IMG/VR virus record: IMGVR_UViG_3300026445_000027
Coordinates: 78,779-142,778 of that record
Strand: one strand, 5' to 3'
Length of the DNA stretch: 64,000 nucleotides
Source of the DNA: a virus
The notes beneath the pieces are model-generated. The model saw only the letters and a list, made by a program, of their open reading frames with translations. It had not been told where the DNA came from and did not search any database. Positions 5,367-59,993 of the stretch are shown piece by piece. How positions within the stretch are numbered: the first letter of the stretch is position 1; each line of letters opens with the position of its first letter. The position numbers were made by a program, and so were the translations under genes.

Positions 5367-6654
5367 ATTAGAATTCCTAAAGATCTGGTTAGCTAACCAG
5401 GGCTATGCTGAGAAGGCTGCTGTACAGTCAGTGATCTCGATTCAGTTCGAAGACGAGGACTCTGCTGGTGCTTTCCGTAAAGTCCCTTGGGCTGTCTGGG
5501 TTGAAGGCGGTGTGTATAAATGCCACATTGATGGTTCGGATGTAACCATTGATGGTAAGGTAGATCGTCCGTTGTTTGTTAACGACGATTACATCGATCT
5601 GCCTGGCGACTTCCATCCGGTACTACGTGGAGCTAAGACCGACACTACCTTCGGTCTGTTGCTGTTCAACATCATCCTGTTCTGGGAAGTGTTCGGTACC
5701 AAGGTGCCTTACGTTAACGAGGAGTTTACTCCTAAGCTTATCCAAGGGTTTTTGTCTGACCTGATGGTAGACAACCCCAAGGAAGGTGAGCAGGTGCCTG
5801 AGGGTAAAGCCTCGGTAGATGACTGCATGAAGTTTACCCGCCACTGTAACTTCCTGGAAGGTCTGGGTACCTACTTCGTGAGGCCTGGTGGGATTGAGAT
5901 GCTCACCATCAGTCCTGCTATCCTCAAGCGTAAAGACGAGCTGATGGCTAAGCTGAAAGCCGACGGCAAAATGAACGACCCAGTAGCTGTAACTAAGGCT
6001 ATTGATGAGCTCGTCAAAATGGACCGTGAGGAGATCATGAACGGTCCTGGGGCTACGTTTATCATTAACGATGGCTTCATCAGTAACGCCCGTAAACGTA
6101 TGTTCATCGCCTTTGGTATTGAACCTAAAGGTGACGGTTGGGTGTTCCTCAACATGTCCCTGGATGAGGGCATGGATCCAGATGAGATCGTGGCGTATAT
6201 CAACACAGCTATTGCTGGTTCGTATAGCCGTTCGAAATCTACTGGTGAAGGCGGTGCACAGGTTAAAGAGGTACTGAAACTCGTAGGTCGCCGTAAGGTA
6301 GATCTGGCTGACTGCGGCACTACTGTTGGTGAGCCAATCCAGATGCATGAACTTACTGCTCAGAAATGGGCTGGTAGCTTCTACATTGTTAATGGTAAGA
6401 CCGAACAGTTAACCAAAGAGGTGGCACTGGCTAGCTTCGGCAAACGTCTGGTTATTCGTACCCCTAATGGTTGCCGTAACCCTGAGGGTAACTACTGCGC
6501 TACTTGCTGTGGTACTGGCTTGGGTAAACTGGCCACTCGTCTGTCTGCTGAGGTCGTACGTATCCCTACCAACATGATGCTGGGGCGCATGAAAGCTGCT
6601 CACGTGGCTGGTGGTAAGACTACTCGGCTAAACCTGGCTACTGCGATCAAATAA
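5359..6654 (+). CDS. Virion RNA polymerase beta'-like subunit, middle fragment (phiKZ gp80-like)
   Basis: Bridge-helix-like SRSKSTGEGG...DCGT, Zn motif CRNPEGNYCATCCG, trigger-loop-like MKAAH. Confidence 0.85.
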   Translation: MTKLEFLKIWLANQGYAEKAAVQSVISIQFEDEDSAGAFRKVPWAVWVEGGVYKCHIDGSDVTIDGKVDRPLFVNDDYIDLPGDFHPVLRGAKTDTTFGLLLFNIILFWEVFGTKVPYVNEEFTPKLIQGFLSDLMVDNPKEGEQVPEGKASVDDCMKFTRHCNFLEGLGTYFVRPGGIEMLTISPAILKRKDELMAKLKADGKMNDPVAVTKAIDELVKMDREEIMNGPGATFIINDGFISNARKRMFIAFGIEPKGDGWVFLNMSLDEGMDPDEIVAYINTAIAGSYSRSKSTGEGGAQVKEVLKLVGRRKVDLADCGTTVGEPIQMHELTAQKWAGSFYIVNGKTEQLTKEVALASFGKRLVIRTPNGCRNPEGNYCATCCGTGLGKLATRLSAEVVRIPTNMMLGRMKAAHVAGGKTTRLNLATAIK

Positions 6655-9811: not shown

Positions 9812-11824
9812 TTACGACACCGCGTGTTGGAAGTAGGTCTCCAGCGGACTTGGTTGCCTGTCTTTAACCAGGAAGGTTTTGATGTTGGACAATACCCCTT
9901 GTTGGCCTTCCGCGATCATCAGACCGCCTGCGCCTCGGTTCTTGACACACACCATAAAGTTCTCAAAGTACTTAGGACCACTACCCAAGGCTAACTTATA
10001 CGACAAGTTAGCAGGGTCTTTACACAGCAACGATGCGAGCATAGACTCCGCATGTACGATGTTGATACCCTTGGTTTCTTGGTTGATCAGGGTCCAGAAT
10101 TCACCGAGTACCTCGCCAAAGATCTTCGGTGTAACTGGTTGTGACTTCCAGGCACTGTTACGTTTATTGAACGTCATGAAGTTCTCTACACGCCCACGGT
10201 GGGCATCCAGGGATTCACGAGTAAACGGCAGTACAAAGATTGCGTCTTCCCAGTTCCAGTCTTTGAGGTCCACTGCGATATGCTTCTTGTCCATGATCTC
10301 CCAGCCTTTCTCCAAGAGGTACTGGAGGAAGCCCAAAGAGAACCTGGATGTACGCGACGCTACCGAGGTTTGCGCCGAGTGCTGCTGAATGGTCTTACCA
10401 CCGACCATCACGTCTTCGATCTCATACTGGAAGGTTACGTCAGTCAAGTACGGAAGTTTATCCATACTGACCTCATCCAATACGTCCAGCGACCGTAGGT
10501 CAGACAGATCCCGTTGGATCGACGACTTCAGGATCAGACGAGTACCGTCAACACACATCTCTGGCTTCAAGAAGATCTCGTTGCCGTTCGAGGTAAAGAT
10601 CTGACGGTCACGTGCTGCCACATCAAAGCGACGGGTTACAGCGTTACGGATAAAGTGCTTGGTCGACAGCATTTTCTGACCAAGCGGGTTACAGATGGTA
10701 GTTGCAGCGAACATACCAATGTTGGCATCACGTCGCATCATTGCGTTGTAAGGGATCGAAGCTTTCATGGCTCCGTAGCACTTACCACACACCATACCGT
10801 CTTGACCGGCGTTACAGAATGCAATACTGCGGAATGCAACTGTCTCACCAGCCTTGATTTTCTTGACGGTCTTGTGGTCGATCAGCTCCAGTGTGCCGTC
10901 ATCCAACATCCGGTGCTTACCGAGCAACGCTACAGCCATCTCGGTTGTAGACACACGGATCTCTGCCAGGTCTTGCGACCCACAGTCATACGTGTGCAGG
11001 ATACCTTGCAGTACCGCTGTTGCCAGGTGAGTCTTACGGTGGAACCACTCGGAGTCTTTCAGGCCACGACCGTTAGAGATCAACGACATGCCCGAGGACT
11101 TACCGTCACCAAGCACGTCTACCTGGTTAGTGATGCCTTCCCCGTAGTTGGAGTAGATGACGTTAGGCAGGATGACGTTGGGTAGGTCAAATACCGCACC
11201 ACGTGCAATCGCCAGCTGATAAGCCTGGTTGATCGACACCCCACCGGTACGCGCCATCAGCGCCACGATATTTTCTTTCAGCGAGTCGTCGTTCCGTACG
11301 TAATGACTGAACAGTTCCTCGCCTTCGTCCACTGTTACTTCATTCGCGTGGACTTTCCGACGAATCTCACAAATACCTGGGTTAAGCATGAACTCATCAA
11401 CAGACTCTGCCGTCGCAGAGATAATCGACCGTTCCGACATCACGGTGATCATGTTGTTGAGCTTAGCTTGCCACGAGTGGATCAACCGCTTGATTGCATC
11501 CATCTCGAGTGGATCATCGATCAATGGACCGATAATACCCAGGATATGATCCAGAGGGATTTTCAACACCTTGTCATTATAGACAATGTTGCGGTGCTTC
11601 TCCTCACGAATCGACGGGATCAGTTCGTCGACTGTGTAAGGAATCTCTGGATACCGACGGTGGACGTTCATCCCTTGCCACGACAGCATCATTGCATATG
11701 CGTCGGACTTTACCGTTTTGCCATTGTCATCAGTTACATCGATAGCTTTACGGTGATTCCTGAAACGAAGTACATCCATCTCAGTAAGGTTGGCGAAATC
11801 CCGTAGATTAACATGCATTCCCAT
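9812..11824 (-). CDS. Non-virion RNA polymerase beta' C-terminal subunit (phiKZ gp74-like)
   Basis: DCGS, Zn motif CNAGQDGMVCGKCYG, trigger loop QKMLSTKH; synteny. Confidence 0.9.
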   Translation of the reverse strand: MGMHVNLRDFANLTEMDVLRFRNHRKAIDVTDDNGKTVKSDAYAMMLSWQGMNVHRRYPEIPYTVDELIPSIREEKHRNIVYNDKVLKIPLDHILGIIGPLIDDPLEMDAIKRLIHSWQAKLNNMITVMSERSIISATAESVDEFMLNPGICEIRRKVHANEVTVDEGEELFSHYVRNDDSLKENIVALMARTGGVSINQAYQLAIARGAVFDLPNVILPNVIYSNYGEGITNQVDVLGDGKSSGMSLISNGRGLKDSEWFHRKTHLATAVLQGILHTYDCGSQDLAEIRVSTTEMAVALLGKHRMLDDGTLELIDHKTVKKIKAGETVAFRSIAFCNAGQDGMVCGKCYGAMKASIPYNAMMRRDANIGMFAATTICNPLGQKMLSTKHFIRNAVTRRFDVAARDRQIFTSNGNEIFLKPEMCVDGTRLILKSSIQRDLSDLRSLDVLDEVSMDKLPYLTDVTFQYEIEDVMVGGKTIQQHSAQTSVASRTSRFSLGFLQYLLEKGWEIMDKKHIAVDLKDWNWEDAIFVLPFTRESLDAHRGRVENFMTFNKRNSAWKSQPVTPKIFGEVLGEFWTLINQETKGINIVHAESMLASLLCKDPANLSYKLALGSGPKYFENFMVCVKNRGAGGLMIAEGQQGVLSNIKTFLVKDRQPSPLETYFQHAVS

Positions 11825-25858: not shown

Positions 25859-27919
25859 TTAGTACAGCGGGGTGAAGAAGTTCACCGACTGACCGGCTTG
25901 GACGATCGGGCTGTTGCTACCAGCAGCCACAGTAGTAGCCAGGCCGATACCAGGCGCGAACGCCAGGCGGTTGGTCTGGAAGCTACCCAGGTTGTTGGCG
26001 GCGTTCAGGTTGCCGATACCGTTCATCGCTTCGGCCATGGCAGCCATGAAGTCCGGAGCGAAGATCGCCGAGTTGCCGAAGGCGTTGATGTGGTTGTGAC
26101 CGTCGAACAGCGAGGACGATTGCTCGATCCGCAGTTTCTGCGAACGTTGCTTGAAGTCTTCCTGCTGTGCGTTGCCGTAGACCAGACCCAGGTAGTTCTC
26201 GATCGACGCTTTCGCGGCAGCCGAGTTGCCAGGCTTGGCGTTGCAGATGAACATTTCGTCCACTTCTTGGGTGTTGATGTGACGCTCGCGGTCGTCCTTG
26301 CCACCAGGGGTAACGGCCAGACCGTTGACAACGATGGAGTTGGACTGGATCAGGATCGGCTTGGTTTGAGCCGGGAACCAGCCGCGATCGGCTGCACGGT
26401 TCTTCGCGATGACTTCCGAGAAGCGCTTGTTGGTCATCGAGTCGATCAGTGCCACAACAACCTTGACAGCCTTGGCGTTGTCCGAACCCACCAGCTTGCG
26501 CATGAAGTTGATGATCGGAGCATCCGGACCGTTCGAGATCAGGTTGATCTTGAACACCGCGTGGGCCGCCACGTTCTGACGGATCCAGTTGGTGACGAAG
26601 TCGGTGTCGTTGATGTTCTTCTCGTTCAGCGGCGGACGGATCTGAGGGTTCAGGATCTGCGCTGCGCCAGGCATGTTCTGCACCATCATCTGGATCCGGG
26701 TCTCCAGACCGGCCAGCGAACCACGACCACCTACGTGTTGCTTACGCAGTGCGTCGGCGAAGACGTACTGGTTGTTGGTGGTCATCAGCGCGAACAGGCC
26801 GAAGAAGAACGGATACAGACCGCCGTTACCACGCATCATTTCACCGGCAGTGACGGTGTCGATGGTGATTTCCGGCTGCAGCGGACGGTAGGCACCTGGC
26901 CAGATGTTCTGACCCAGAGCGAACACGCTGGAACCCATGAAGCTTTGCAGGGCCTGCATGTAGTCGTTGCTTTGAGCGCGGGCCATCATGCGAGCAGCGT
27001 ATTCTTCGTACGCGGTACCGATCAGCGACACGGTTGCGGTAACACGAGCGATCTCGCGGGTGTTGACCGGGTTGTACTGCTGGGTGTTGTTGCCGTTGGC
27101 GTTCATGGTAGTCACGATGACTTCCATGTTGGCTGGCGACAGGGTCTTGCCGTCGGTCAGACGTTCCTGGATGGCTTGTACGCGAGCTTCCGCAGTACGG
27201 TCTTTGCCGTAAGGGGAATCAGGTTCCAGCCATGGGGACGGAATGTCCATGCCCATTTCGACGATTTTCTCAGCACCGTATACCAGCAGGGCCTTCTCCC
27301 ACTGACGGGCCAGGTACATGGCCAGGTAGTGCGGTTGGTCCTTGGTTTCGCCGGCTTGTGGATGCTTGAGCATTTCCATGTCGACAACCACCAGGTTGAC
27401 GATTTCAACGGCGTTGGCGCCCTTGGTCTTGGCGGCCGAGTCGTAGTGCTCTTTCAGGCGATCAACGAACTGCTTGTTGATCTGTGCCGAAGGAGTGATC
27501 GGAATCGAAACGCGTTGCTGCTGGCCGGCGGCGACGTTGATGGTGATGTGCTCGGTACCGATCGAGTTGTCACGGTCCGAGAACAGCGCCGCCATGATGT
27601 ACATCACACCTTCGATGACGGTGTAGAAGCCCAGGCCTGGCAGTTGTGCCGAGATGTTGGTGGTCAGGTGTTCGATGGTTGGTACGATCTGACGTTGCTT
27701 GGCGTCAGTGGTGGAAGTGTTAATGTTCTTGTAGATGTGGTCGGTCAGGACCTCATATACTTCGGTAACGATCTTGAGGTTCCGGGTGTCCGAAACCAGG
27801 GAGTTCATACCGAAGAGTTGAGCCAGAAGACCGCTCGCATTGTTGGACGGGCCCGATGGCTTGCTACCACCGTTGTTGTCGGCCCAGCCACCGTATTCGT
27901 TTTCTTTATCAAGAGCCAT
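25859..27919 (-). CDS. chmA: Chimallin, phage nuclear shell protein
   Basis: 686 aa with strong high-expression codon bias; directly upstream of nvRNAP beta'-N (the conserved ChmA position); early promoter upstream. Confidence 0.85.
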   Translation of the reverse strand: MALDKENEYGGWADNNGGSKPSGPSNNASGLLAQLFGMNSLVSDTRNLKIVTEVYEVLTDHIYKNINTSTTDAKQRQIVPTIEHLTTNISAQLPGLGFYTVIEGVMYIMAALFSDRDNSIGTEHITINVAAGQQQRVSIPITPSAQINKQFVDRLKEHYDSAAKTKGANAVEIVNLVVVDMEMLKHPQAGETKDQPHYLAMYLARQWEKALLVYGAEKIVEMGMDIPSPWLEPDSPYGKDRTAEARVQAIQERLTDGKTLSPANMEVIVTTMNANGNNTQQYNPVNTREIARVTATVSLIGTAYEEYAARMMARAQSNDYMQALQSFMGSSVFALGQNIWPGAYRPLQPEITIDTVTAGEMMRGNGGLYPFFFGLFALMTTNNQYVFADALRKQHVGGRGSLAGLETRIQMMVQNMPGAAQILNPQIRPPLNEKNINDTDFVTNWIRQNVAAHAVFKINLISNGPDAPIINFMRKLVGSDNAKAVKVVVALIDSMTNKRFSEVIAKNRAADRGWFPAQTKPILIQSNSIVVNGLAVTPGGKDDRERHINTQEVDEMFICNAKPGNSAAAKASIENYLGLVYGNAQQEDFKQRSQKLRIEQSSSLFDGHNHINAFGNSAIFAPDFMAAMAEAMNGIGNLNAANNLGSFQTNRLAFAPGIGLATTVAAGSNSPIVQAGQSVNFFTPLY

Positions 27920-34727: not shown

Positions 34728-34795
34728 CTTTACGACCCCTCTCGTTAAACATAGTATCGCATATATATGGTCAACCAGTTAAAAACAACTATAAC

Positions 34796-34829
34796 CCTAA
34801 GGGTAGGAGCATTAGCTCCTACCCTTAGG
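34796..34829 (-). terminator. Hairpin downstream of phuZ
   Basis: CCTAAGGGTAGGAGC-atta-GCTCCTACCCTTAGG. Confidence 0.75.
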
Positions 34830-34841
34830 TTACATCATAGC

Positions 34842-35837
34842 TTACAGCAAGACGCCGTTGGAATCAGCACCGACGGACATGTCTTTCTGTTGTACGTAGA
34901 CGCCCTGGTTGGTGGACTTGACCTTGGTCAGTTTTTCCAGTTGTTGCTCCAGGTCGGCTACGGATTCACCGTGGTCCAGCAGCATGTGCAGCTGGGTGGT
35001 GTCGGCTGGGGTTTGGATGCCCTTGCCGAAGATGCCGGTGGAACGGATCACAGTGCCGGAGAAAGCAGCAGTGATGTTCTCGGACTTGTCGAACAGGCTG
35101 ACGGTAGCTACCGGGATTGGGCCCTTGTAGTTTTCCGGGTTGTCGTAGAAGCTGATGCGCGACAGTGCTGGTGGAACGCCGTAGTGCTTGGAGTAGTCCA
35201 GCACGTTGAGCAGGTCTTGGAAGTCTTGCTCTTCGTTGTCACCGTTGGCGAACAGCGAGAACAGCGAGATCTTCTGAACGACGTCGCGGTCGACTTGGCC
35301 GCGGGTCTTACCTGGCTCGTTGCGGAACTCCATGTAGTTGATCGGAGCGTTGAGCTGGTTCGGTTGGGTTTGAATCGCCATCGACTGCAGAGTCTTGATG
35401 GAGTTTTCCATTTCGACCTGGGAGGTGTGGTCGGTGATGATCGCCAGTACTGCCGAGTGGCCGTTCTGTTTCAGCCAGCGGATCACCAGGGTAGCCAGCA
35501 GGGCACCAGAACCACCAGCGCCGGAGCAGGCAACGATGTTGAACACGCCTGGGGTGTACTTGTTCATGGTGCGGTCAACGAACGGTACAGCCTCGGCGTA
35601 GTTGGTAGCTTTGACCTTACCGGAACCGTTGGCGAGCTTCTTCGGATCACCGCTCAGTGGGACGCGTTCCAGCGGGATGCCCAGTTCTTCTGGCAGGCGG
35701 TTGTTACCGGAGGCGTCGAGTGCCAGGTAAGTTGCCTTGGCCACCTTGTCCGAGTAGGTGCTGGCTTTCAACAGCTTAGCGATGTTGATACCGGCGCCGC
35801 CGCAGACGATGATGTTCAGCTCTGGTTTAGTCGACAT
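34842..35837 (-). CDS. phuZ: Phage tubulin PhuZ
   Basis: CGGAGINI, GSGK, tubulin signature SGAGGSG, QDFQDL; 331 aa. Confidence 0.93.
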   Translation of the reverse strand: MSTKPELNIIVCGGAGINIAKLLKASTYSDKVAKATYLALDASGNNRLPEELGIPLERVPLSGDPKKLANGSGKVKATNYAEAVPFVDRTMNKYTPGVFNIVACSGAGGSGALLATLVIRWLKQNGHSAVLAIITDHTSQVEMENSIKTLQSMAIQTQPNQLNAPINYMEFRNEPGKTRGQVDRDVVQKISLFSLFANGDNEEQDFQDLLNVLDYSKHYGVPPALSRISFYDNPENYKGPIPVATVSLFDKSENITAAFSGTVIRSTGIFGKGIQTPADTTQLHMLLDHGESVADLEQQLEKLTKVKSTNQGVYVQQKDMSVGADSNGVLL

Positions 35838-35912
35838 AAATTACTCTCTTTACCAAGTGGAAGTGTATTGCGAAATCATTTATGTAAAAGATCTGTAGAT
35901 CCATACACGTAG

Positions 35913-35930
35913 GTAATATAGGCTTGTAAA
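35913..35930 (-). promoter_or_regulatory. Phage early promoter of phuZ
   Basis: Minus strand TTTACAAGCCTATATTAC with an exact TATATTAC core. Confidence 0.75.
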
Positions 35931-36135
35931 TTTATTACCCTACATAAAAAGGTTATCCAGTATAAATGCAAAAAAGAAAAGCATTACCTACCAGTACCTA
36001 AACCACATGGGCAAGGACTGGTAGGCTAAGCTTAACTACACTGGGATGCTATCAACTAACTAGGTCGAACCCTACAACGACCAGGTATGTGATTGAGCAA
36101 TACAATATAAAGTGCAGTTACAAAAAATAAAGTAT

Positions 36136-36447
36136 AACCCCACCCAATACCCCTAGACCAGGCGACAGTGTCGGCTAGGATCAGGGCATTGAGCAGGGGG
36201 AGGTTTTCTTTGGTTGCCTCAACAGCACAACCCAACCAGCGAATAACTAGGCAGACGATTACTGGTTGTTGCCTTAGGACCTCCTAACCTTTGGCAGGGG
36301 CAGGGGCTACAGCATGGGTCGAAGATACAAAGGAAGAGTGACGTACCAATTGAGAGGCACACCGGCCAGCAAACCTGACAACGGGTACATCACTCTGACT
36401 AGGCAAGCGAGGGCAAGCTTAGTCTACACGGCCGCTAGGTCCATGTT
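36136..36447 (-). ncRNA. Putative structured RNA(s) at the 3' end of the tRNA operon
   Basis: No credible ORF; 12-bp helix 36335-36346/36385-36396, crossing helices, long G-U-containing hairpin 36136-36205 followed by a U-tract. Confidence 0.45.
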
Positions 36448-36524
36448 TGGAAGAGGTAGATGGATTCGAACCATCGCATGACAGGATCAAAACCTGTTGC
36501 CTTACCGGGCTTGGCTATACCTCT
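36448..36524 (-). tRNA. tRNA-Gln (anticodon TTG)
   Basis: AGAGGTA/TACCTCT acceptor, ACAGG-TTTTGAT-CCTGT anticodon arm, GTTCGAATC, encoded CCA. Confidence 0.93.
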
Positions 36525-36529
36525 GTAAC

Positions 36530-36624
36530 TGGGGTGGTCTACGGGCTTTTACCGTACGTCGTGAGTAACAGGCCGGCCTCCAGACCTGTAACGGCTTTCT
36601 CAAAGTGGACCTTGGGAGAACACC
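36530..36624 (-). ncRNA. tRNA-like RNA A (95 nt)
   Basis: GGTGTTC/GACCACC acceptor-like stem, TACGG-TAAAAGC-CCGTA T-arm, CCA end; no canonical D or anticodon loop. Confidence 0.6.
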
Positions 36625-36631
36625 TTTGATT

Positions 36632-36707
36632 TGGCTCCACGTCCTGGATTCGAACCAGGGACCAACAGATTAACAGTCTGCTGCTCTACCGACTGAGCTA
36701 ACGTGGA
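36632..36707 (-). tRNA. tRNA-Asn (anticodon GTT)
   Basis: TCCACGT/ACGTGGA acceptor, GCAGA-CTGTTAA-TCTGT anticodon arm, GTTCGAATC, GCCA end. Confidence 0.95.
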
Positions 36708-36715
36708 AGAAATAT

Positions 36716-36831
36716 TGACGGTCCATTCGGGCTTTTACCGCACTTACTCATGAGCTTGCGGCTCAAGGGGGCCCGACCGTCCGGGCGCCGAGTGCTTTCT
36801 TTACCTACCAGGGTTCCTTGATCAATGGTCC
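36716..36831 (-). ncRNA. tRNA-like RNA B (116 nt), paralog of RNA A
   Basis: GGACCA/TGGACC acceptor-like stem, CGG-TAAAAGC-CCG T-arm, CAAGG and AGAAAGC motifs shared with RNA A, GTCA end. Confidence 0.55.
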
Positions 36832-36847
36832 TTTGTAGGTTAATATG

Positions 36848-36981
36848 TTGTTCGACCTGGTAAGGGGGAAGGGAGGCTCGTTTTATCCCCCGACTTGGAC
36901 CCATGCACCGTATGGACTACTGGGCGGCTCCTTTTAGTGTAGCCCGGCTGTACCCTACCGTCTTTCCACCAGATCAAACAA
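36848..36981 (-). ncRNA. Putative ~134-nt ncRNA closed by a 14-bp stem
   Basis: TTGTTTGATCTGGT/ACCAGGTCGAACAA, with two G-U pairs that form only on the minus strand. Confidence 0.55.
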
Positions 36982-36994
36982 ACTCTTGAATAAA

Positions 36995-37285
36995 GTATCC
37001 GTTCGCCACACCCGCGCTATTCGCATTCCGCAAGCGCGTCATGTACTTACATTCCCGTTGCCACGGATCACAGCAAAGCGCTCAGCGCGCTAGCACGGGA
37101 AAGAGTCCCCCTAGGACTTCTTGTGTGGGCTGCTTGCGCAATGCAAAGCCGCCCTGCGAGCCAACCTGACCGTCGGCTAAATGCCAGCAACAAGGTACCG
37201 TGACGAACCTTGTTGCCGGACTAGGTGTGTGTTCCTCAGCGCCCTTCGCCGCCCACAGCGCACCACCTTTGCTGAGGGACACACA
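36995..37285 (-). ncRNA. Putative ~290-nt highly structured ncRNA
   Basis: 15-bp and 13-bp hairpins, several short helices, possible pseudoknots; no credible ORF. Confidence 0.5.
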
Positions 37286-37287
37286 TT

Positions 37288-37427
37288 TGGTAGAGAGTAC
37301 ACGATTCGAACGTGTGGGCCCATAAGTGTCGTTGGCCGACACCCTGAGCACATCCGGTTTCATGTAAGGCCGCCCTAGGGTACGCCCACAATCCTCCAGA
37401 CTCCTTAAACCACTCGGACAACTCTCT
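37288..37427 (-). ncRNA. Expanded tRNA-Ser-derived RNA (140 nt)
   Basis: Perfect acceptor, Ser-type D arm TGTCCGAGTGGTTTAAGGA, T arm ACACG-TTCGAAT-CGTGT, ACCA end; 38-nt anticodon loop and 37-nt variable arm. Confidence 0.8.
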
Positions 37428-37444
37428 GTTAACTTTGTATAACA

Positions 37445-37603
37445 TAGGAAATCGGGACGGATCCCAGGGTAGAGCCCTGGTCTTACGCCGTAAGTATACG
37501 ACGCATTCTGGATCGCCCTCCGTCTTGAGGCTTTTCTTCCCTAAGTCTAGCCAACCCTGACGGCCGTTAGGCTAGAGAGTTAACCGCGACCCGGGTTTAT
37601 CCA
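37445..37603 (-). ncRNA. Putative structured spacer RNA
   Basis: Hairpins TCTAGCC/GGCTAGA, CCAGGG/CCCTGG, GACGGA/TCCGTC; non-coding. Confidence 0.35.
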
Positions 37604-37607
37604 AATA

Positions 37608-37693
37608 TGGTGCGAGAGACGGGCATCGAACCCGTATGGCCAGAAGCCGACAGATTTTAAGTCTGTTGTGTATACCAATTCCACCACACTCGC
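37608..37693 (-). tRNA. tRNA-Leu (anticodon TAA)
   Basis: GCGAGTG acceptor, GGAATTGGTATAC D loop, ACAGA-CTTAAAA-TCTGT anticodon arm, long variable arm, ACCA. Confidence 0.92.
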
Positions 37694-37801
37694 AGAACAC
37701 ACCGTTACATATCATAACCATGTGTAGTAAAAAGATAAGAGGAACTGCTCCAGATTGCGACATCCTTCACAATCCCTCTGTCACCTAGACCTCGGTAATA
37801 G

Positions 37802-38066
37802 TGTTAACCCTTTTACCGCCGTAAAGGCCCGCCTCATCAAACTCTCTGCTCACAACCATGCTGCCGGCCAGATCGAAATCCCAGGGCGGTCAGCACAGAA
37901 GAAGCCCAGTAGGAAAGTTTGGGTGACTTAGTGGGTTTGACGTTCCACTCATAGGTTCTGCTCAGAAAAGCTTGTCATCGCGATTCGTTGCATCATACAA
38001 CCACCGGCTCCACCTTAAGGTTCCGGCTGATCTCCTCAATGGGAGAATTCGGTTTAGGCGTTAACA
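37802..38066 (-). ncRNA. Possible ~265-nt ncRNA or leader at the start of the RNA island
   Basis: Non-coding, several hairpins, TGTTAAC/GTTAACA ends (palindromic, so weak evidence). Confidence 0.3.
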
Positions 38067-38106
38067 ATCACACCTGTTGTATATAATGGATTATTGCAGT
38101 AACAAA

Positions 38107-39297
38107 TTAACCAATCGGACTACCAGTGGCAGACTGCATGCCGTTTACTGGGGCCTCACCAGCTCTTATGATCAAATCACCTTTGGACTCAACGATGTAT
38201 TTATTGGCTTCTTTGAAAGTGTTGCCCAGGTAGTAGAGACCGGTGCCGTTATAGCCGATGCCGTAGTACTGCATTTCACACTGATCGCTAGACTCAGCAG
38301 AGATCATTGCTGTAAGGTGTTCTTGTGTGATAGCTGAACTAACGTTTTCAACATAGACGGGGTTGGCGTGCTCACTGAACTCAGCAATGAAATTATCATC
38401 TACCAAAACAACCAACGTCGACAGGCCGTTGATAAGCCACTTGCGATGCGACAGGATGATTACTTTACCTGGGTAGCGATTACCAGTTTTGGTGATCTCT
38501 TCACGAATAAGGTTTTTGGTAGTTTTGCTGAAATTGCCGAAAACTGTGTTATAGTACTTGAGCTGATCCGGGTCATCCAGTACAAAAGGGCGTTTGACGC
38601 TAGGGATATCTTCTTCTGGTCCTGGGTCCCTTGCAGGCTTAGCATTAGCCTTAACATAGTTAGCTTCCAACATCGCCAGTTTGCTTTCTGGTATCAGCCC
38701 ACCTTCGCGAAGCTCTTTGATCATTTCCTTTGTGGCGTAAACGTTGTATTGCTGAATACGTTTGGCGGTTAACGAGTAAGCGTCGAAGAAGCTACCGTCC
38801 AGGTACGCACCAACGTTACCATGGAAATTAGCCAGGATGGTACCGGAGTCGTACTCTTCTTCTGACTCAGCCACGCCACCTGGGGCCAGGCCTGCTTTAG
38901 CCAATGCTTCGCGCAGGTTAGGGTTAGCACTGAACATAATCTCACGTGCCATTGCCGCGATGCGAACTGGATCAGCGCCGTTCAGCAATGCGGGCAGATC
39001 AAAATCTACCGCACCTGGGTCGTCAGTGAGGGACTCTTTGTAGAGACCACCCATACCAGGGTACTCGAGGTCTTTCTCCGTGATCTTGGAGATAGTGTCC
39101 CCGGATGCGTTCATGATGTAAACGTTGCCAGTGATCGGATAAGACCGATTCTTACCTGGCAGTGCATGTTGGATTACCAGCCCGTGGTTTCCATTTGGTG
39201 GGGTACCTAAGTTGACTTTGATGTCAACCGGTTCTTCTACAACCAGCATGCGGAAACTCTTGTTGTCGCGGTCCATCATTTTGATAATGAGGTTCAT
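38107..39297 (-). CDS. Hypothetical protein, paralog family member 4
   Basis: 396 aa; N-terminal domain ends in ITGNVYIMNASGDTISKI. Confidence 0.75.
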   Translation of the reverse strand: MNLIIKMMDRDNKSFRMLVVEEPVDIKVNLGTPPNGNHGLVIQHALPGKNRSYPITGNVYIMNASGDTISKITEKDLEYPGMGGLYKESLTDDPGAVDFDLPALLNGADPVRIAAMAREIMFSANPNLREALAKAGLAPGGVAESEEEYDSGTILANFHGNVGAYLDGSFFDAYSLTAKRIQQYNVYATKEMIKELREGGLIPESKLAMLEANYVKANAKPARDPGPEEDIPSVKRPFVLDDPDQLKYYNTVFGNFSKTTKNLIREEITKTGNRYPGKVIILSHRKWLINGLSTLVVLVDDNFIAEFSEHANPVYVENVSSAITQEHLTAMISAESSDQCEMQYYGIGYNGTGLYYLGNTFKEANKYIVESKGDLIIRAGEAPVNGMQSATGSPIG

Positions 39298-44882: not shown

Positions 44883-47800
44883 TTATGCTGCAAGTTTACG
44901 TTCAAGCATCCGTTTAGCGCGTTCGATCTTGGCCCCTTCAAGCAGGCTGTCGACAGTAAGCAGCTTCGCGGTTTCTGCTGGGAGCAACTTAGTTAACTTA
45001 CGGATCTCAGCTTCCAGACGCAATGCCAGGATGTTGTCATTGGTTTTCAGCAGTTCTTCAGTAAGCCCGTTGATTTTCAACCTAATGTTGTCAAAGAACG
45101 CCACAATACTCGGGTCCATCTTGGTCTCTTCTTTCTGCTTACCTACGTCCAGTAGGTTTTGCGTGTCAGTAAGAGCCAGTGCAGGCATGATCCCGTAGTA
45201 CGGTTTGTTACCACCCAACTTGATGAACCAGTACGTCAGCAACCAAGCAATTACCAAGTCATCGTGTTGCTTAGAGTCGTGGTCAATGCGATCGCCCTTA
45301 GTCCGCAGGTTGATCAACTCATCAGCCAGTTTGTCGTAAGCAATGCCATACCCCGTTACAGCAACTGCTTCCTGAATCAAACCATACAGCACCTTACGCG
45401 ACGACGCCGAAGTGTTGAAGCCGAACAAGTGTTTGTATTTCAGGTAGAAGTTTTTGTCCCGGTACGAGAACTTGGTGTTCTGCACTGCTTCCAGTTCCTT
45501 GGAGTGCAATGCGGGTTCGTGGTAGACCTGGTTGAATATCCGCTGGAATGGGTCCATCCCTTTGGACGGCAGCAGGATAAGTAAGCTGTCGATCATGTGG
45601 TGAGCATAGTTACGCTCGATTACCAGCACACTGTTCTGCAACACTTGCAGCATGTCCACGATAATCGCTGTAACGTCGTCCAGCATAGCCAGTGGGTAAC
45701 GACCTACCCCAACGACCTTGCCGGTCTTCATCGAGCGGATAATCAGTGTACAGGCGTCCTTGTTGATGGCCGACGACGTATCCACCCCAATGATGAAGTG
45801 GTCGTTGTGTTCCTTCTTGGACATTTCCATCAACTGCTCTTGCGTAACAAAGAAGTCTACGAACAGACCACTGTCACGGTATTCCTTACTCCAGAGTTTC
45901 TCCCGCTTAACGTTGTTGATGGCTTCACGAGTCAAGTCATCGAACAGCCGGTTCTCACCGTCCTCCACCCACATTAACAACAAGTCGATCTTGGCCTTAG
46001 CAAGACTGAGGTTGAGCTCGTCGATTGTCCGTTTGACCCAGTCTTTGTTTTTACCCAACTGCATGTAGTTGTAAACCATGGACACCGACGGTGCGGTAGT
46101 CTTAGTTGGGCTAGCACGAATCAAGCGGTCTTTGAGGTGGGACTCACTGTACGAGTCAAAGAACTTCTCACGCCACTCGGTAGCAGACATTAACTTCTCG
46201 AACATGAATGCACCACTTGGATGCAGGGTCGTGTTCGGAGTAGTGATATATCCAATACCGTATGGCTGGCCGTTCTCCCGACACAGTTCCATCTCAGTAA
46301 GTGCAGATGGCATCGCGCCGTTGATGATCGCCTCAATCCAGGAGATATACCCTGGTTCATCGAGGAACGTGGTGCCTACCGTTAAACCACGACCAACGTC
46401 ACCCGCGGCATCCTGGCCGATCTGTGGAACGTTAATCGTTAGTACGTTTACCTTGTCCTCACCAAACGCCCGGTAAGTTAAGTAGGTACCTGCGTCTTTG
46501 TCCTTGTACGTCGAGTTAACCAGGTAGTTCGGAATACAACTCCGCATCCGTTTAACTGCGTCAATGAACTGCGCACGGTTATCCGACTTCAGCGTAATCA
46601 CATGGGTCTTGTAGCCACGACCGTTGATATACGTTAACCAGAAGTTAATGACCTGGACCGACACCGTGTTGTGGGTGACGATAAAGTCATCGGTGATATA
46701 CAGGTGCTGTTCGTTATCCACCTCAATGCAGGTACACTCTTGATCACCACTAAATTCAATCTTGGTGATGAAAAGCTGGTTGGGTACGTTAGGTTCTTCA
46801 GCCTCGTTGAACTTGTAGTACTTGCAACCTTCTGGCAGAGTGATTACCACACCTTCATCAGTGGCGGTAGCAGTACCACCGAGTCCCCGTGCCAGATATT
46901 GGAGTTGATTTACGATTACCCGGTTAGAGGTCTTATACAGCAAACCCTTTGGGGTAGGGTGGGCTAGATCCAGAAACGCGTGTAACACGTCACTGCGGTC
47001 CTCTATACAGCCTTCCAGGTAGTCCTGTGGCAGACCCTGTGCGTGAGTGATGCTCAGGTCGTTATCATTGGACATGCGCAGGTAGGCACTGTCACCTTGG
47101 ATCACCAGTTTCAGGTGTTTAGGCAACTTGTTGCTCAGGTACCAAGTAGCTTTCTGACTGATCTTACCCAGATGGATTAACTTACCATCGTTAGGCGCAG
47201 CAAACAGCAGACCCATCACATAAGGACGGATCATACGTTTCTTTTTGGGTGGTCCTTCTTCAGGCTCGATCAGCGGTAGTTCAATCTTGATACCTTTATT
47301 GATACGTCGTTTAATCTGGGACGTGGTGTACTCATCCCAGATAGGGTCTACGTTGACCTTACGGTTATGGTCGCCAACCGACCACAGGTGTTCTGCCCCA
47401 GCTTCCGTGGTACGTCCATCCGAGCAGGTAACCAAGTAGGTACGTTTCTTACCTTGTGGGTGTACACCAATGACCGTGGTCTCGTTACCATAGCGGTCAA
47501 TGATCTCATCACCAACCCGCAGGTCACCGATATTAACCCAATGGTCTTGCGGACGACCGTAAGCATTTTCTTTACGCTTCTTACGGACTTTCTTGGTATT
47601 CGGTTGGTACTTGCCCTGCTGACGGGGCATGATCATGTAACTAGTAATGTGGTTCAGGTAGTTCCAGATAAAACTGATGTTACCCCGGTTAGCCTGGAAA
47701 TAACGATCCGCCCGTACCTTACAGACTTCACGTAGGAAATACCAGAAGTTAGCCCGGCACTCCTCCATGATCCACTGACGTTGTTCGTTAGTGAGATCCT

Positions 47801-48152
47801 CGGCATAAGGGTCCACACCACGCAACATTGGGTTGTTCAATTGCAGACAGAAGAAATAGTTCTTGATACCTTGCCGTTTGAAAATCTCGGCAGTACGCAG
47901 GAAACTATGGTTCTTAGTCTTGTTGTCAGGGATTGCACCGTAACGAGGAAAGTCCTTGAGGAACCTCACCGTCTTAATACTGTGCAGACTGTCCTCGTTG
48001 AAATGAGCCATTAAGGTCTCATCATCAGTACGTGAGTGGCTGTCGATCCGTTTGGCCTGATCGTCGATCAGTTCCTTAGGTAATGTGTGAGCACCCAGGT
48101 ATTCCTGCAGCTTCTTAGCTGACTCGAGGAGCTTGGAATAATCAGAAGACAC
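44883..48152 (-). CDS. terL: Terminase large subunit containing an intein
   Basis: Walker A PRQQGK|T split by the intein, Walker B FLDE, coupling motif ITTP, nuclease IGVDTS and HDDLVIA. Confidence 0.92.
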   Translation of the reverse strand: MSSDYSKLLESAKKLQEYLGAHTLPKELIDDQAKRIDSHSRTDDETLMAHFNEDSLHSIKTVRFLKDFPRYGAIPDNKTKNHSFLRTAEIFKRQGIKNYFFCLQLNNPMLRGVDPYAEDLTNEQRQWIMEECRANFWYFLREVCKVRADRYFQANRGNISFIWNYLNHITSYMIMPRQQGKYQPNTKKVRKKRKENAYGRPQDHWVNIGDLRVGDEIIDRYGNETTVIGVHPQGKKRTYLVTCSDGRTTEAGAEHLWSVGDHNRKVNVDPIWDEYTTSQIKRRINKGIKIELPLIEPEEGPPKKKRMIRPYVMGLLFAAPNDGKLIHLGKISQKATWYLSNKLPKHLKLVIQGDSAYLRMSNDNDLSITHAQGLPQDYLEGCIEDRSDVLHAFLDLAHPTPKGLLYKTSNRVIVNQLQYLARGLGGTATATDEGVVITLPEGCKYYKFNEAEEPNVPNQLFITKIEFSGDQECTCIEVDNEQHLYITDDFIVTHNTVSVQVINFWLTYINGRGYKTHVITLKSDNRAQFIDAVKRMRSCIPNYLVNSTYKDKDAGTYLTYRAFGEDKVNVLTINVPQIGQDAAGDVGRGLTVGTTFLDEPGYISWIEAIINGAMPSALTEMELCRENGQPYGIGYITTPNTTLHPSGAFMFEKLMSATEWREKFFDSYSESHLKDRLIRASPTKTTAPSVSMVYNYMQLGKNKDWVKRTIDELNLSLAKAKIDLLLMWVEDGENRLFDDLTREAINNVKREKLWSKEYRDSGLFVDFFVTQEQLMEMSKKEHNDHFIIGVDTSSAINKDACTLIIRSMKTGKVVGVGRYPLAMLDDVTAIIVDMLQVLQNSVLVIERNYAHHMIDSLLILLPSKGMDPFQRIFNQVYHEPALHSKELEAVQNTKFSYRDKNFYLKYKHLFGFNTSASSRKVLYGLIQEAVAVTGYGIAYDKLADELINLRTKGDRIDHDSKQHDDLVIAWLLTYWFIKLGGNKPYYGIMPALALTDTQNLLDVGKQKEETKMDPSIVAFFDNIRLKINGLTEELLKTNDNILALRLEAEIRKLTKLLPAETAKLLTVDSLLEGAKIERAKRMLERKLAA
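46668..47609 (-). mobile_element. Class 3 intein (314 aa) with degenerate LAGLIDADG domain
   Basis: Starts YQPNTKKV, block B EAGAEHLW, block F CTCIEV, block G IVTHN followed by Thr(+1). Confidence 0.88.
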
Positions 48153-59978: not shown

Positions 59979-59993
59979 GTAATATAGATGTAA
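59979..59993 (-). promoter_or_regulatory. Phage early promoter
   Basis: Minus strand TTACATCTATATTAC with an exact core. Confidence 0.65.

Follow-up and report, generated by a model that had tools for sequence, protein, structure and literature searches.

The stretch of viral DNA analyzed here (the window; 64,000 nt, positions 78,779 to 142,778 of IMG/VR record IMGVR_UViG_3300026445_000027, a contig of 142,778 bp) holds, directly upstream of phuZ on the minus strand, an island of 2,269 nt (38106-35838) that begins after the stop codon of a 396-aa open reading frame (ORF) and in which three tRNA genes alternate with nine other modules, lettered A to I. Since the window encodes both chimallin and PhuZ, the virus is a nucleus-forming one. 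In modules A, B, C, D, E, and H, helices have persisted through changes on both sides of their pairs, which shows purifying selection on those helices. We conclude that the modules are independent trans-acting RNA genes and not spacers, because their helices are kept, they turn over as cassettes, they share slots with tRNAs, one of them (E) occurs elsewhere as a stand-alone unit, and another (C) is tRNA derived and, as we read it, does not decode. The explanation that we consider reasonably probable is that this is a chimallivirus RNA-gene island in which tRNA maturation would free trans-acting RNAs that engage host factors.

A first-pass annotation had taken the island for non-coding DNA with three normal tRNAs of about 240 nt and at least six unexplained structured RNAs, and this description is borne out. 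The tRNAs, on which ARAGORN and Rfam agree, total 239 nt, all lie on the minus strand with an encoded CCA, and make up the only tRNA locus on the contig. Searching positions 35700-38300 against 4,227 Rfam families at E ≤ 10, among them ribozymes, riboswitches, 6S, tmRNA, Y RNA, GOLLD, and ROOL, returned no match of note besides the tRNAs, and no non-tRNA match of note was found in six related loci at E ≤ 0.5. The G+C content of the island is 0.52 to 0.60, against 0.42 to 0.47 in most of the flanking DNA. No ORF inside it exceeds 93 aa, and open frames are not kept in two diverged relatives, where translated matches come as short pieces in shifting frames and on both strands. An island of overlooked small proteins is therefore extremely improbable, even though stop-free frames reach 152 aa, module F is crossed by a frame that stays open in each of the three lineages, and two GenBank records place a hypothetical protein over module E. 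The frames are not conserved as units and run through tRNAs and terminators, and indels are not multiples of three. In module F, the common open frame has 1 synonymous and 5 non-synonymous changes, and a 1-nt insertion near the 3′ end shifts it in one lineage (L003), so that F as a small gene was rejected.

Structure was assessed by comparison among relatives. PhuZ-based searches of IMG/VR and JGI metagenomes fetched the island from two near-identical strains (L002 and L034, the phuZ DNA of L034 being 98.6% identical to that of the window) and from two diverged lineages, L035 (= L036; PhuZ 82% identical) and L003 (= L037, L038; 73%). The islands of the window, L034, L035, and L003 were aligned, and alignment-fold z scores were computed against column shuffles preserving gap and conservation classes (Table 1, with two tRNAs and three phuZ coding blocks alongside). 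The minus strand has the stronger score of the two strands in A, B, C, D, and H, in agreement with the earlier placement of the RNA genes on the tRNA strand. Pairs changed on both sides with pairing kept (RNAalifold) number 22 of 75 in A, 15 of 91 in H, 15 of 69 in D, 9 in C, and 7 of 41 in B. Module D, for instance, has a conserved hairpin (AGCCGAC-GGTCAG-GTTGGCT, 37177-37158) whose stem is maintained in L035 by G-C/U-A swaps around the GGTCAG loop. Folded as single sequences, C, E, F, and G have z scores of -0.2 to -1.5, which do not separate them from shuffles, so structure above chance is seen in the comparative tests only. With compensatory changes in A, B, C, D, E, and H across relatives, the expectation of at least six structured RNAs holds; the broader claim that every module is structured stands for these six and is not supported for F, G, and I, which are conserved.

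Module E belongs to an RNA family that has no Rfam match and for which we built a model (R1). Its fold consists of an outer stem P1 of 12 to 14 bp and two hairpins, P2 and P3. The loops AAAGGAGCCGCCC and AAAACGAGCC and the junctions GGTAGGGTACAG and GGTGCATGGGTACAAGT are near-invariant, and the P2 and P3 stems differ in sequence in nearly every lineage with pairing always kept. The family has 13 members, of which that of the window matches the entire length of the model with 122.8 bits (E = 5e-40). In a plain MAFFT alignment, both partners have changed in 17 of 24 pairs and 82% of cells pair, values reached by none of 500 shuffles (slid controls gave 3 to 6 such pairs), and a model-fitted alignment of the 13 members agrees (over the two alignments, 15 to 17 both-sides pairs, with 3 to 7 in slid controls). 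The RNA also appears to consist of two similar units, in each of which a GGGUAC box precedes a hairpin whose loop includes GAGCC-N-CC; a pseudoknot between GGGU and loop is possible in each unit, and the bases concerned never vary.

The distribution of this family extends well beyond the close relatives. By BLAST, window positions 36965-36865 are about 80% identical to DNA in the tRNA clusters of the Pseudomonas phages D6 and Psa21 and the Erwinia phage pEa_SNUABM_9; together with the Pseudomonas phage HPP-Temi, these are the only carriers of E among 50,697 phage records. Two IMG/VR motif scans and one scan of a genome collection added further members (L008 to L014, L041, L042, and L040). Of the matches in the genome collection, the one in a Xylophilus metagenome-assembled genome (MAG; L040) is true, and that in a Prevotellaceae MAG (L039) was set aside as chance. 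D6, L041, and L042 encode chimallin. In eight jumbo-phage loci, including those of D6, Psa21, and pEa_SNUABM_9, E follows the CCA of a tRNA-Asp, -Pro, or -Ser at a distance of 0 to 3 nt and has tRNA-Asn downstream, and the order Asp-E-Asn is conserved across jumbo phages. The family also occurs in small proviruses, and in L009, L011, and L040 (the last a provirus of the Xylophilus MAG) E stands alone, away from tRNAs; in L040 a strong terminator lies about 30 nt downstream of E, among nucleotide-metabolism genes, so that E behaves as a gene in its own right. The hypothetical proteins annotated over E in pEa_SNUABM_9 (L007:2558-2812) and HPP-Temi (PP968062.1:16483-16581) are probably mis-annotations.

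Module C derives from a tRNA-Ser whose anticodon loop has been replaced by a hairpin. It has a perfect 7-bp acceptor stem (AGAGAGT/ACTCTCT) with A73-CCA (the CCA is not encoded in L003), a class-II D arm with a 3-bp stem and an 11-nt loop, and a canonical T arm (ACACG-TTCGAAT-CGTGT) whose loop has the tRNA form GTTCGAATC. What is lacking is a normal anticodon arm, with a 5-bp stem and a 7-nt loop that contains U33 and the anticodon; in its place the stem TCTGG/CCGGA surrounds an insert of 38 nt in the window and of 31 to 38 nt across lineages. The tRNA-like ends are identical between lineages (the 5′ 34 nt and the block GAAACCGGATGT in all of them) and the insert alone varies, its sequence lineage specific yet forming a further hairpin every time. 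The consensus is cloverleaf-like, with compensatory changes in the T stem, the extension, and the long variable arm, where GCUCA/UGGGC in one lineage answers to ACCCA/UGGGU in another. ARAGORN made no call, even with introns of 0 to 200 nt allowed, and RF00005 gave no match at E ≤ 10 in the window and none in the related record G001. The next-best matches of a model built on module C (R2) are class-II tRNA-Ser genes, and its acceptor stem is a near base-for-base match to that of tRNA-Ser(UGA) of pEa_SNUABM_9. A pattern scan found C in the known relatives only.

In L003, the seven bases preceding the 3′ strand of the enclosing stem are GUAGAAA; in the window and in L035, they are CAUGAAA. Both include a Ser-type NGA triplet that lacks U33 in the window and would have A34 in L003; to our knowledge, A34 is not used by bacteria for Ser. 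An intron-bearing tRNA-Ser was considered and rejected, as no junction restores a normal loop or gives U33 in the window and L035. A group I intron was likewise rejected, the insert of 31 to 38 nt being far too small and an Intron_gpI match absent, as was a bulge-helix-bulge intron, the fold in L003 having an internal loop and not two bulges 4 bp apart. We read module C as a tRNA-Ser body that lost decoding, and it is the one tRNA mimic among the modules, several of which had been suspected of mimicry from the outset. Seryl-tRNA synthetase (SerRS) does not read the anticodon, so that charging of module C is conceivable. Without an anticodon loop it cannot be a substrate mimic for a loop-cutting nuclease and could mimic the tRNA body only.

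One alternative is that the modules are decaying tRNA genes and leftover spacer in a cluster of fast turnover, with no function of their own. Module C does stem from tRNA-Ser, modules and tRNAs interchange in the same slots, module I has a lone T-arm-like piece, related clusters are rich in T-arm fragments and odd tRNAs, and F and G have no supported fold. Decay would not, however, be expected to yield matching changes that keep the helices of A, B, C, D, E, and H paired, nor to leave the tRNA-like ends of C identical across lineages with variation confined to the insert. Module F is better conserved than phuZ and tRNA-Asn, and E is kept at about 80% identity in phages that otherwise share with the island only tRNA-level similarity. 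We therefore regard decay as distinctly unlikely.

In the four-way alignment, slots are collinear and their contents differ in the manner of cassettes. Slot 1 holds tRNA-Leu in the window but tRNA-Asp in L003. Module B is missing from L003 and has an extra copy, 70% identical, upstream of tRNA-Leu in L035. Where the window has E, L035 has a tRNA-Ser(GCU), called by ARAGORN alone, and L003 has a tRNA-Trp. L034 lacks E and F as well as G and tRNA-Gln, and L002 lacks G and tRNA-Gln, so that presence and absence of modules vary among strains 95 to 99% identical. Relatives have thus gained or lost modules as cassettes, or exchanged them for ordinary tRNAs. What occupies the Gln slot in L035 and L003 is tRNA-like but non-canonical: the gene of L003 (L003:5280-5363) is 84 nt long, has about 12 nt in its anticodon loop, and scores 55 bits against the Rfam tRNA model, and that of L035 (L035:2997-3080) encodes an RNA with a T arm and CCA that drew no ARAGORN call. 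The central part of module A in L034 (L034:1130-1230) is closer to L035 than to the window, a sign of recombination within an RNA gene. BLAST of A, B to D, F, and H to I against the same 50,697 phage records gave no match.

Such turnover might also be expected if the modules were selfish mobile RNA cassettes, small ribozymes or intron-like elements, spreading between phage tRNA clusters. The differences among near-identical strains and the chimeric module A of L034 fit this idea, as do the occurrence of E in distant jumbo phages and small proviruses and the fact that Psa21 and T4 have homing endonuclease genes (HNH and GIY-YIG) within or next to their tRNA clusters. The island, by contrast, has no endonuclease gene and no Rfam ribozyme or intron match, and the conserved Asp-E-Asn order suggests descent over hopping. 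Deletion ends sit in similar tRNA 3′ ends, so that ordinary recombination suffices to explain the losses. We hold mobile cassettes to be very unlikely, and return to trans-acting RNA genes as the preferred reading.

Modules F and G are real conserved elements with unsupported folds. Module F is 91 to 95% identical between lineages, compared with 75 to 83% for phuZ DNA and about 80% for tRNA-Asn. Module G is 80% identical to its L035 copy and missing from L002, L034, and L003; G-like 3′ ends occur in L010 and L012. Acceptor-like stems that would give F and G a tRNA-like architecture are not kept in L035, and the inner helices of their predicted minimum-energy folds are broken by L003 substitutions; both candidates were rejected. 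A pattern scan of IMG/VR for the F/G family returned 20 loci which, beyond the known copies and possibly L033, looked on inspection like chance matches in coding DNA. Module I has a block conserved in all lineages and, beyond its terminator, no supported fold.

The island had also been described as a single polycistronic operon ending in hairpin and U-tract signals. The signals are there, three of them on the minus strand, and they divide the island into at least three units, so that it is not one operon: module A has its own box and terminator, and further terminators end H and I. The hairpin of the H terminator is about 60 nt long with more than 20 pairs and is followed by UUUAUUUUUU. Module A is headed in each of the four aligned islands by the same box, ATTATATACAACAGGTGTG, whose core, TTATATACAAC, occurs once in the window. 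A second box, TAT(G/C)ATATGTAAC, precedes the first RNA of the second unit; L034, L035, and L003 share it with the window, where the exact ATATGTAAC occurs once. A third box, TATATTAC, has three window copies, all on the minus strand, of which the one ahead of phuZ and that at 59979-59986 lie just upstream of minus-strand ORFs; at least 3 copies occurred in 14 of 100 shuffles, which makes this weak evidence. We take these boxes as putative promoters.

We propose that unit 1 consists of module A, which has a promoter-like box and an intrinsic terminator to itself; that unit 2 runs from the TATG-type box through tRNA-Leu, B, C, D, E, F, tRNA-Asn, G, tRNA-Gln, and H to the terminator of H; and that unit 3 is module I with the third terminator. 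Host RNase P would cut the unit-2 precursor at each tRNA 5′ end, and should cut at the tRNA-shaped module C as well, with trimming at the encoded CCA. Cleaved in this way, the folded modules would become stable RNAs of their own, like RNAC and RNAD of phage T4. Linkers between modules and tRNAs are 2 to 14 nt, and since the modules adjoin tRNAs so tightly, tRNA end processing would release them; of the first-pass suggestion that it does, the adjacency is observed and the release step is inferred. Least certain is the last step, in which the modules would most likely engage host factors for tRNA-like or folded RNAs to the benefit of the phage. Factors that handle tRNA are suspected because of the slot-for-slot exchange with tRNAs and the tRNA origin of C, and candidates are processing enzymes, charging enzymes, and tRNA-directed defense nucleases, including the defenses discussed by van den Berg et al. 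(PMC10264068). The modules may, as the first-pass annotation supposed, be decoys for anticodon nucleases or other RNA-sensing defenses.

The same adjacency could mean that the modules work in cis as scaffolds on which the tRNA precursor is processed or stabilized, for instance by giving RNase III or RNase E a place to enter or by blocking exonucleases, and that they are discarded once cleaved. Every tRNA-flanking position is occupied by a module, and long closing stems such as P1 of E would suit RNase III. Against such a role, tRNA-Asn is kept in L034 without E and F, and tRNAs are kept in L003 without B and G. Modules A and I carry no tRNA and have their own terminators, E is free of tRNAs in three loci, and its near-invariant loops and junctions exceed the needs of a cleavage stem. 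We consider scaffolds unlikely, and trans-acting RNAs remain the explanation that we prefer.

Several points weigh against that explanation. The phage is known from metagenomes alone, and transcripts, their ends, and their stability are all inferred from sequence. Covariation for A, B, C, D, and H rests on three diverged lineages, so that the statistics are thin and the result is suggestive; F and G have no covariation, and some substitutions disrupt their predicted helices. Promoter assignments lean on conservation and on what we take to be phiKZ-type motifs, and counts of promoter-like motifs in the window are not significant. A search of the related records G001 and G002 for phage-encoded partners found no TROVE protein, RtcB, or CCA-adding enzyme.

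Table 1. Features of the island and neighboring genes, with alignment-fold z scores for each strand.
Feature	Position in window	Strand	Description	z, minus strand	z, plus strand
396-aa ORF	38107-39297	minus	No match in Pfam and PHROG searches		
Promoter-like box TTATATACAAC	38076..38086	minus	Head of module A		
Module A	37729..38075	minus	Structured RNA of ~350 nt with own terminator	-7.6	-4.2
Terminator 1 (module A)	hairpin 37779-37738, U-run 37737-37729	minus	Hairpin covaries		
Promoter-like box TTATGATATGTAAC	37704..37717	minus	Ahead of the tRNA and non-coding RNA unit		
tRNA-Leu(UAA), slot 1	37608..37693	minus	ARAGORN; Rfam 54.2 bits; z as control	-7.8	-9.1
Module B	37430..37602	minus	Structured RNA, hairpin CTAGCC..GTCAGGGTTGGCTAG	-3.9	-1.9
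Module C	37288..37427	minus	140 nt, tRNA-Ser-derived, anticodon loop replaced by hairpin extension	-4.6	-1.7
Module D	36989..37285	minus	Multi-hairpin RNA	-4.8	-1.8
Module E	36849..36985	minus	Member of three-helix RNA family (model R1)		
Module F	36711..36839	minus	Ultra-conserved non-coding element upstream of tRNA-Asn	-0.9	-1.3
tRNA-Asn(GUU)	36632..36707	minus	ARAGORN; Rfam 72.2 bits; all relatives carry one; z as control	-7.7	-7.0
Module G	36526..36630	minus	Shares CAAGG, AGAAAGC, and CGGTAAAAGCCCG with F	-1.4	-1.1
tRNA-Gln(UUG)	36448..36524	minus	ARAGORN; Rfam 63.6 bits		
Module H	36119..36447	minus	Structured RNA of 330 nt, terminator hairpin at end	-7.6	-2.6
Terminator 2 (module H)	hairpin 36198-36138, U-run 36131-36122	minus	Fold z -4.5		
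Module I	35964..36118	minus	Short unit, conserved T-arm-like piece GTCGTTGTAGGGTTCGACCTAG, third terminator	-1.9	-3.8
Terminator 3 (module I)	hairpin 36026-35986, U-run 35980-35970	minus	Fold z -4.6		
Promoter-like box TATATTAC	35913..35920	minus	Ahead of phuZ, in all relatives		
phuZ	34842-35837	minus	phrog_4733, E = 2.5e-69; z of three coding blocks, both strands: +0.9 to -2.7		
Chimallin	25859-27919	minus	phrog_4795, E = 2.8e-106		

The tRNA clusters of phages that carry E hold further unusual elements. A second non-tRNA module, AGAAGGCACTT-GGTGCAGAA-TAAAACGAGGCG..., is common to the clusters of Psa21, D6, and a related contig (L006:2790-2880; L014, reverse complement, 10370-10460; L005:2995-3090), and the motif AAAACGAG is common to this second module and to the P3 loop of E. 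In the cluster of pEa_SNUABM_9 (L007:2600-2990) there are several lone T-arm-like hairpins (GGTTCGAnTCC) that tRNA finders did not call. The tRNA region of the complete 317-kb chimallivirus contig L041 has 55 nt (5817-5871, minus strand) that match positions 330-384 of the bacterial 23S rRNA model (37.7 bits, E = 6e-8) and may be an rRNA-fragment mimic. Elsewhere in the window, the G+C content of phuZ (0.54 to 0.60, positions 34800-35800) is far above that of neighboring genes (0.42 to 0.47), and the plus-strand ORF at 34767-35912 is a spurious antisense shadow of phuZ produced by this high G+C content. A 1,089-aa ORF (44883-48152, minus strand) matches terminase large-subunit profiles in separate pieces and over its first ~330 residues only, and may be a fused or interrupted terminase.

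In kind, the modules are passenger RNAs in a phage tRNA cluster, which is a known phenomenon. As far as Rfam 15 and the literature searched can show, what is new are the families A, B, C, D, E, and H, the density of modules, and the anticodon-less tRNA-Ser mimic. More tentatively, and as a possibility on the doubtful side, the island may hold several undescribed RNA classes, with E a two-unit jumbo-phage RNA, C a processed, perhaps charged, non-decoding RNA, and the whole a tRNA-linked toolkit. If so, the two units of E could bind a protein dimer or a small ligand, and the toolkit would manipulate host tRNA enzymes or tRNA-directed immunity in the cytoplasm, outside the protection of the phage nucleus. 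Module boundaries, six covariation-backed folds, and natural presence/absence variants give starting points for experiments. Module E occurs in the cultured phages Psa21, D6, HPP-Temi, and pEa_SNUABM_9, where it could be deleted and assayed, and the hypothetical protein over it in two GenBank records can be corrected. Module C, in which the anticodon loop is closed off, lends itself well to testing tRNA mimicry in conflicts between phage and host, and the island as a whole bears on the question of why phages carry tRNA genes.

Among known systems, GOLLD and ROOL are reportedly large, ornate, phage-borne RNAs that often adjoin tRNA genes. Their Rfam models gave no match here at E ≤ 10, and the modules are smaller (100 to 350 nt) and separate. 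YrlA is said to be a Y RNA-like tRNA mimic, bound by Rsr/Ro60, that has D- and T-arm features and a long helix in place of the anticodon arm. Like YrlA, module C keeps D and T arms and has a lengthened anticodon arm; unlike YrlA, whose RNA ends are within the long helix and whose acceptor end is closed, it has open acceptor ends with CCA, and neither a TROVE/Ro protein in related records nor an Rfam Y RNA match was found. Some phage tRNAs evade the tRNA nucleases of the host through changes in the anticodon loop (van den Berg et al. 2023, PMC10264068). The anticodon loop is likewise altered in the Gln-slot gene of L003 (about 12 nt) and in module C (31- to 38-nt insert), but the tRNAs of van den Berg et al. 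still decode, whereas module C lacks such a loop, and no choice of junction restores a canonical one in the window. Papers on the transcriptomes of phiKZ and 201phi2-1 report tRNA-linked starts and one small RNA upstream of a tRNA, and none of the modules described here. A catalogue of 10,006 candidate viral RNAs (PMC10690425) could include module E.

The closest precedent is the pair of T4 RNAs RNAC and RNAD (species 1 and 2 RNAs), which are stable, 119 to 139 nt long, and encoded on the tRNA strand. The T4 gene rnaD starts 1 nt after tRNA-Arg and is followed by rnaC, which has a T-arm-like hairpin at its end, with no ORF following. The resemblance is one of arrangement, non-tRNA RNA genes directly adjoining tRNAs on the tRNA strand, and does not extend to homology: R1 scored at most 6.5 bits (noise) on the T4 locus, and BLAST against rnaC and rnaD gave matches of T-arm length only. 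The roles of RNAC and RNAD are still unexplained (PMC3014915). Unlike them, two modules here have their own terminators, and where T4 sets two such RNAs beside eight tRNAs, the island sets six to nine modules beside three. A theme known for decades from T4 thus recurs at far higher density in a nucleus-forming jumbo phage.

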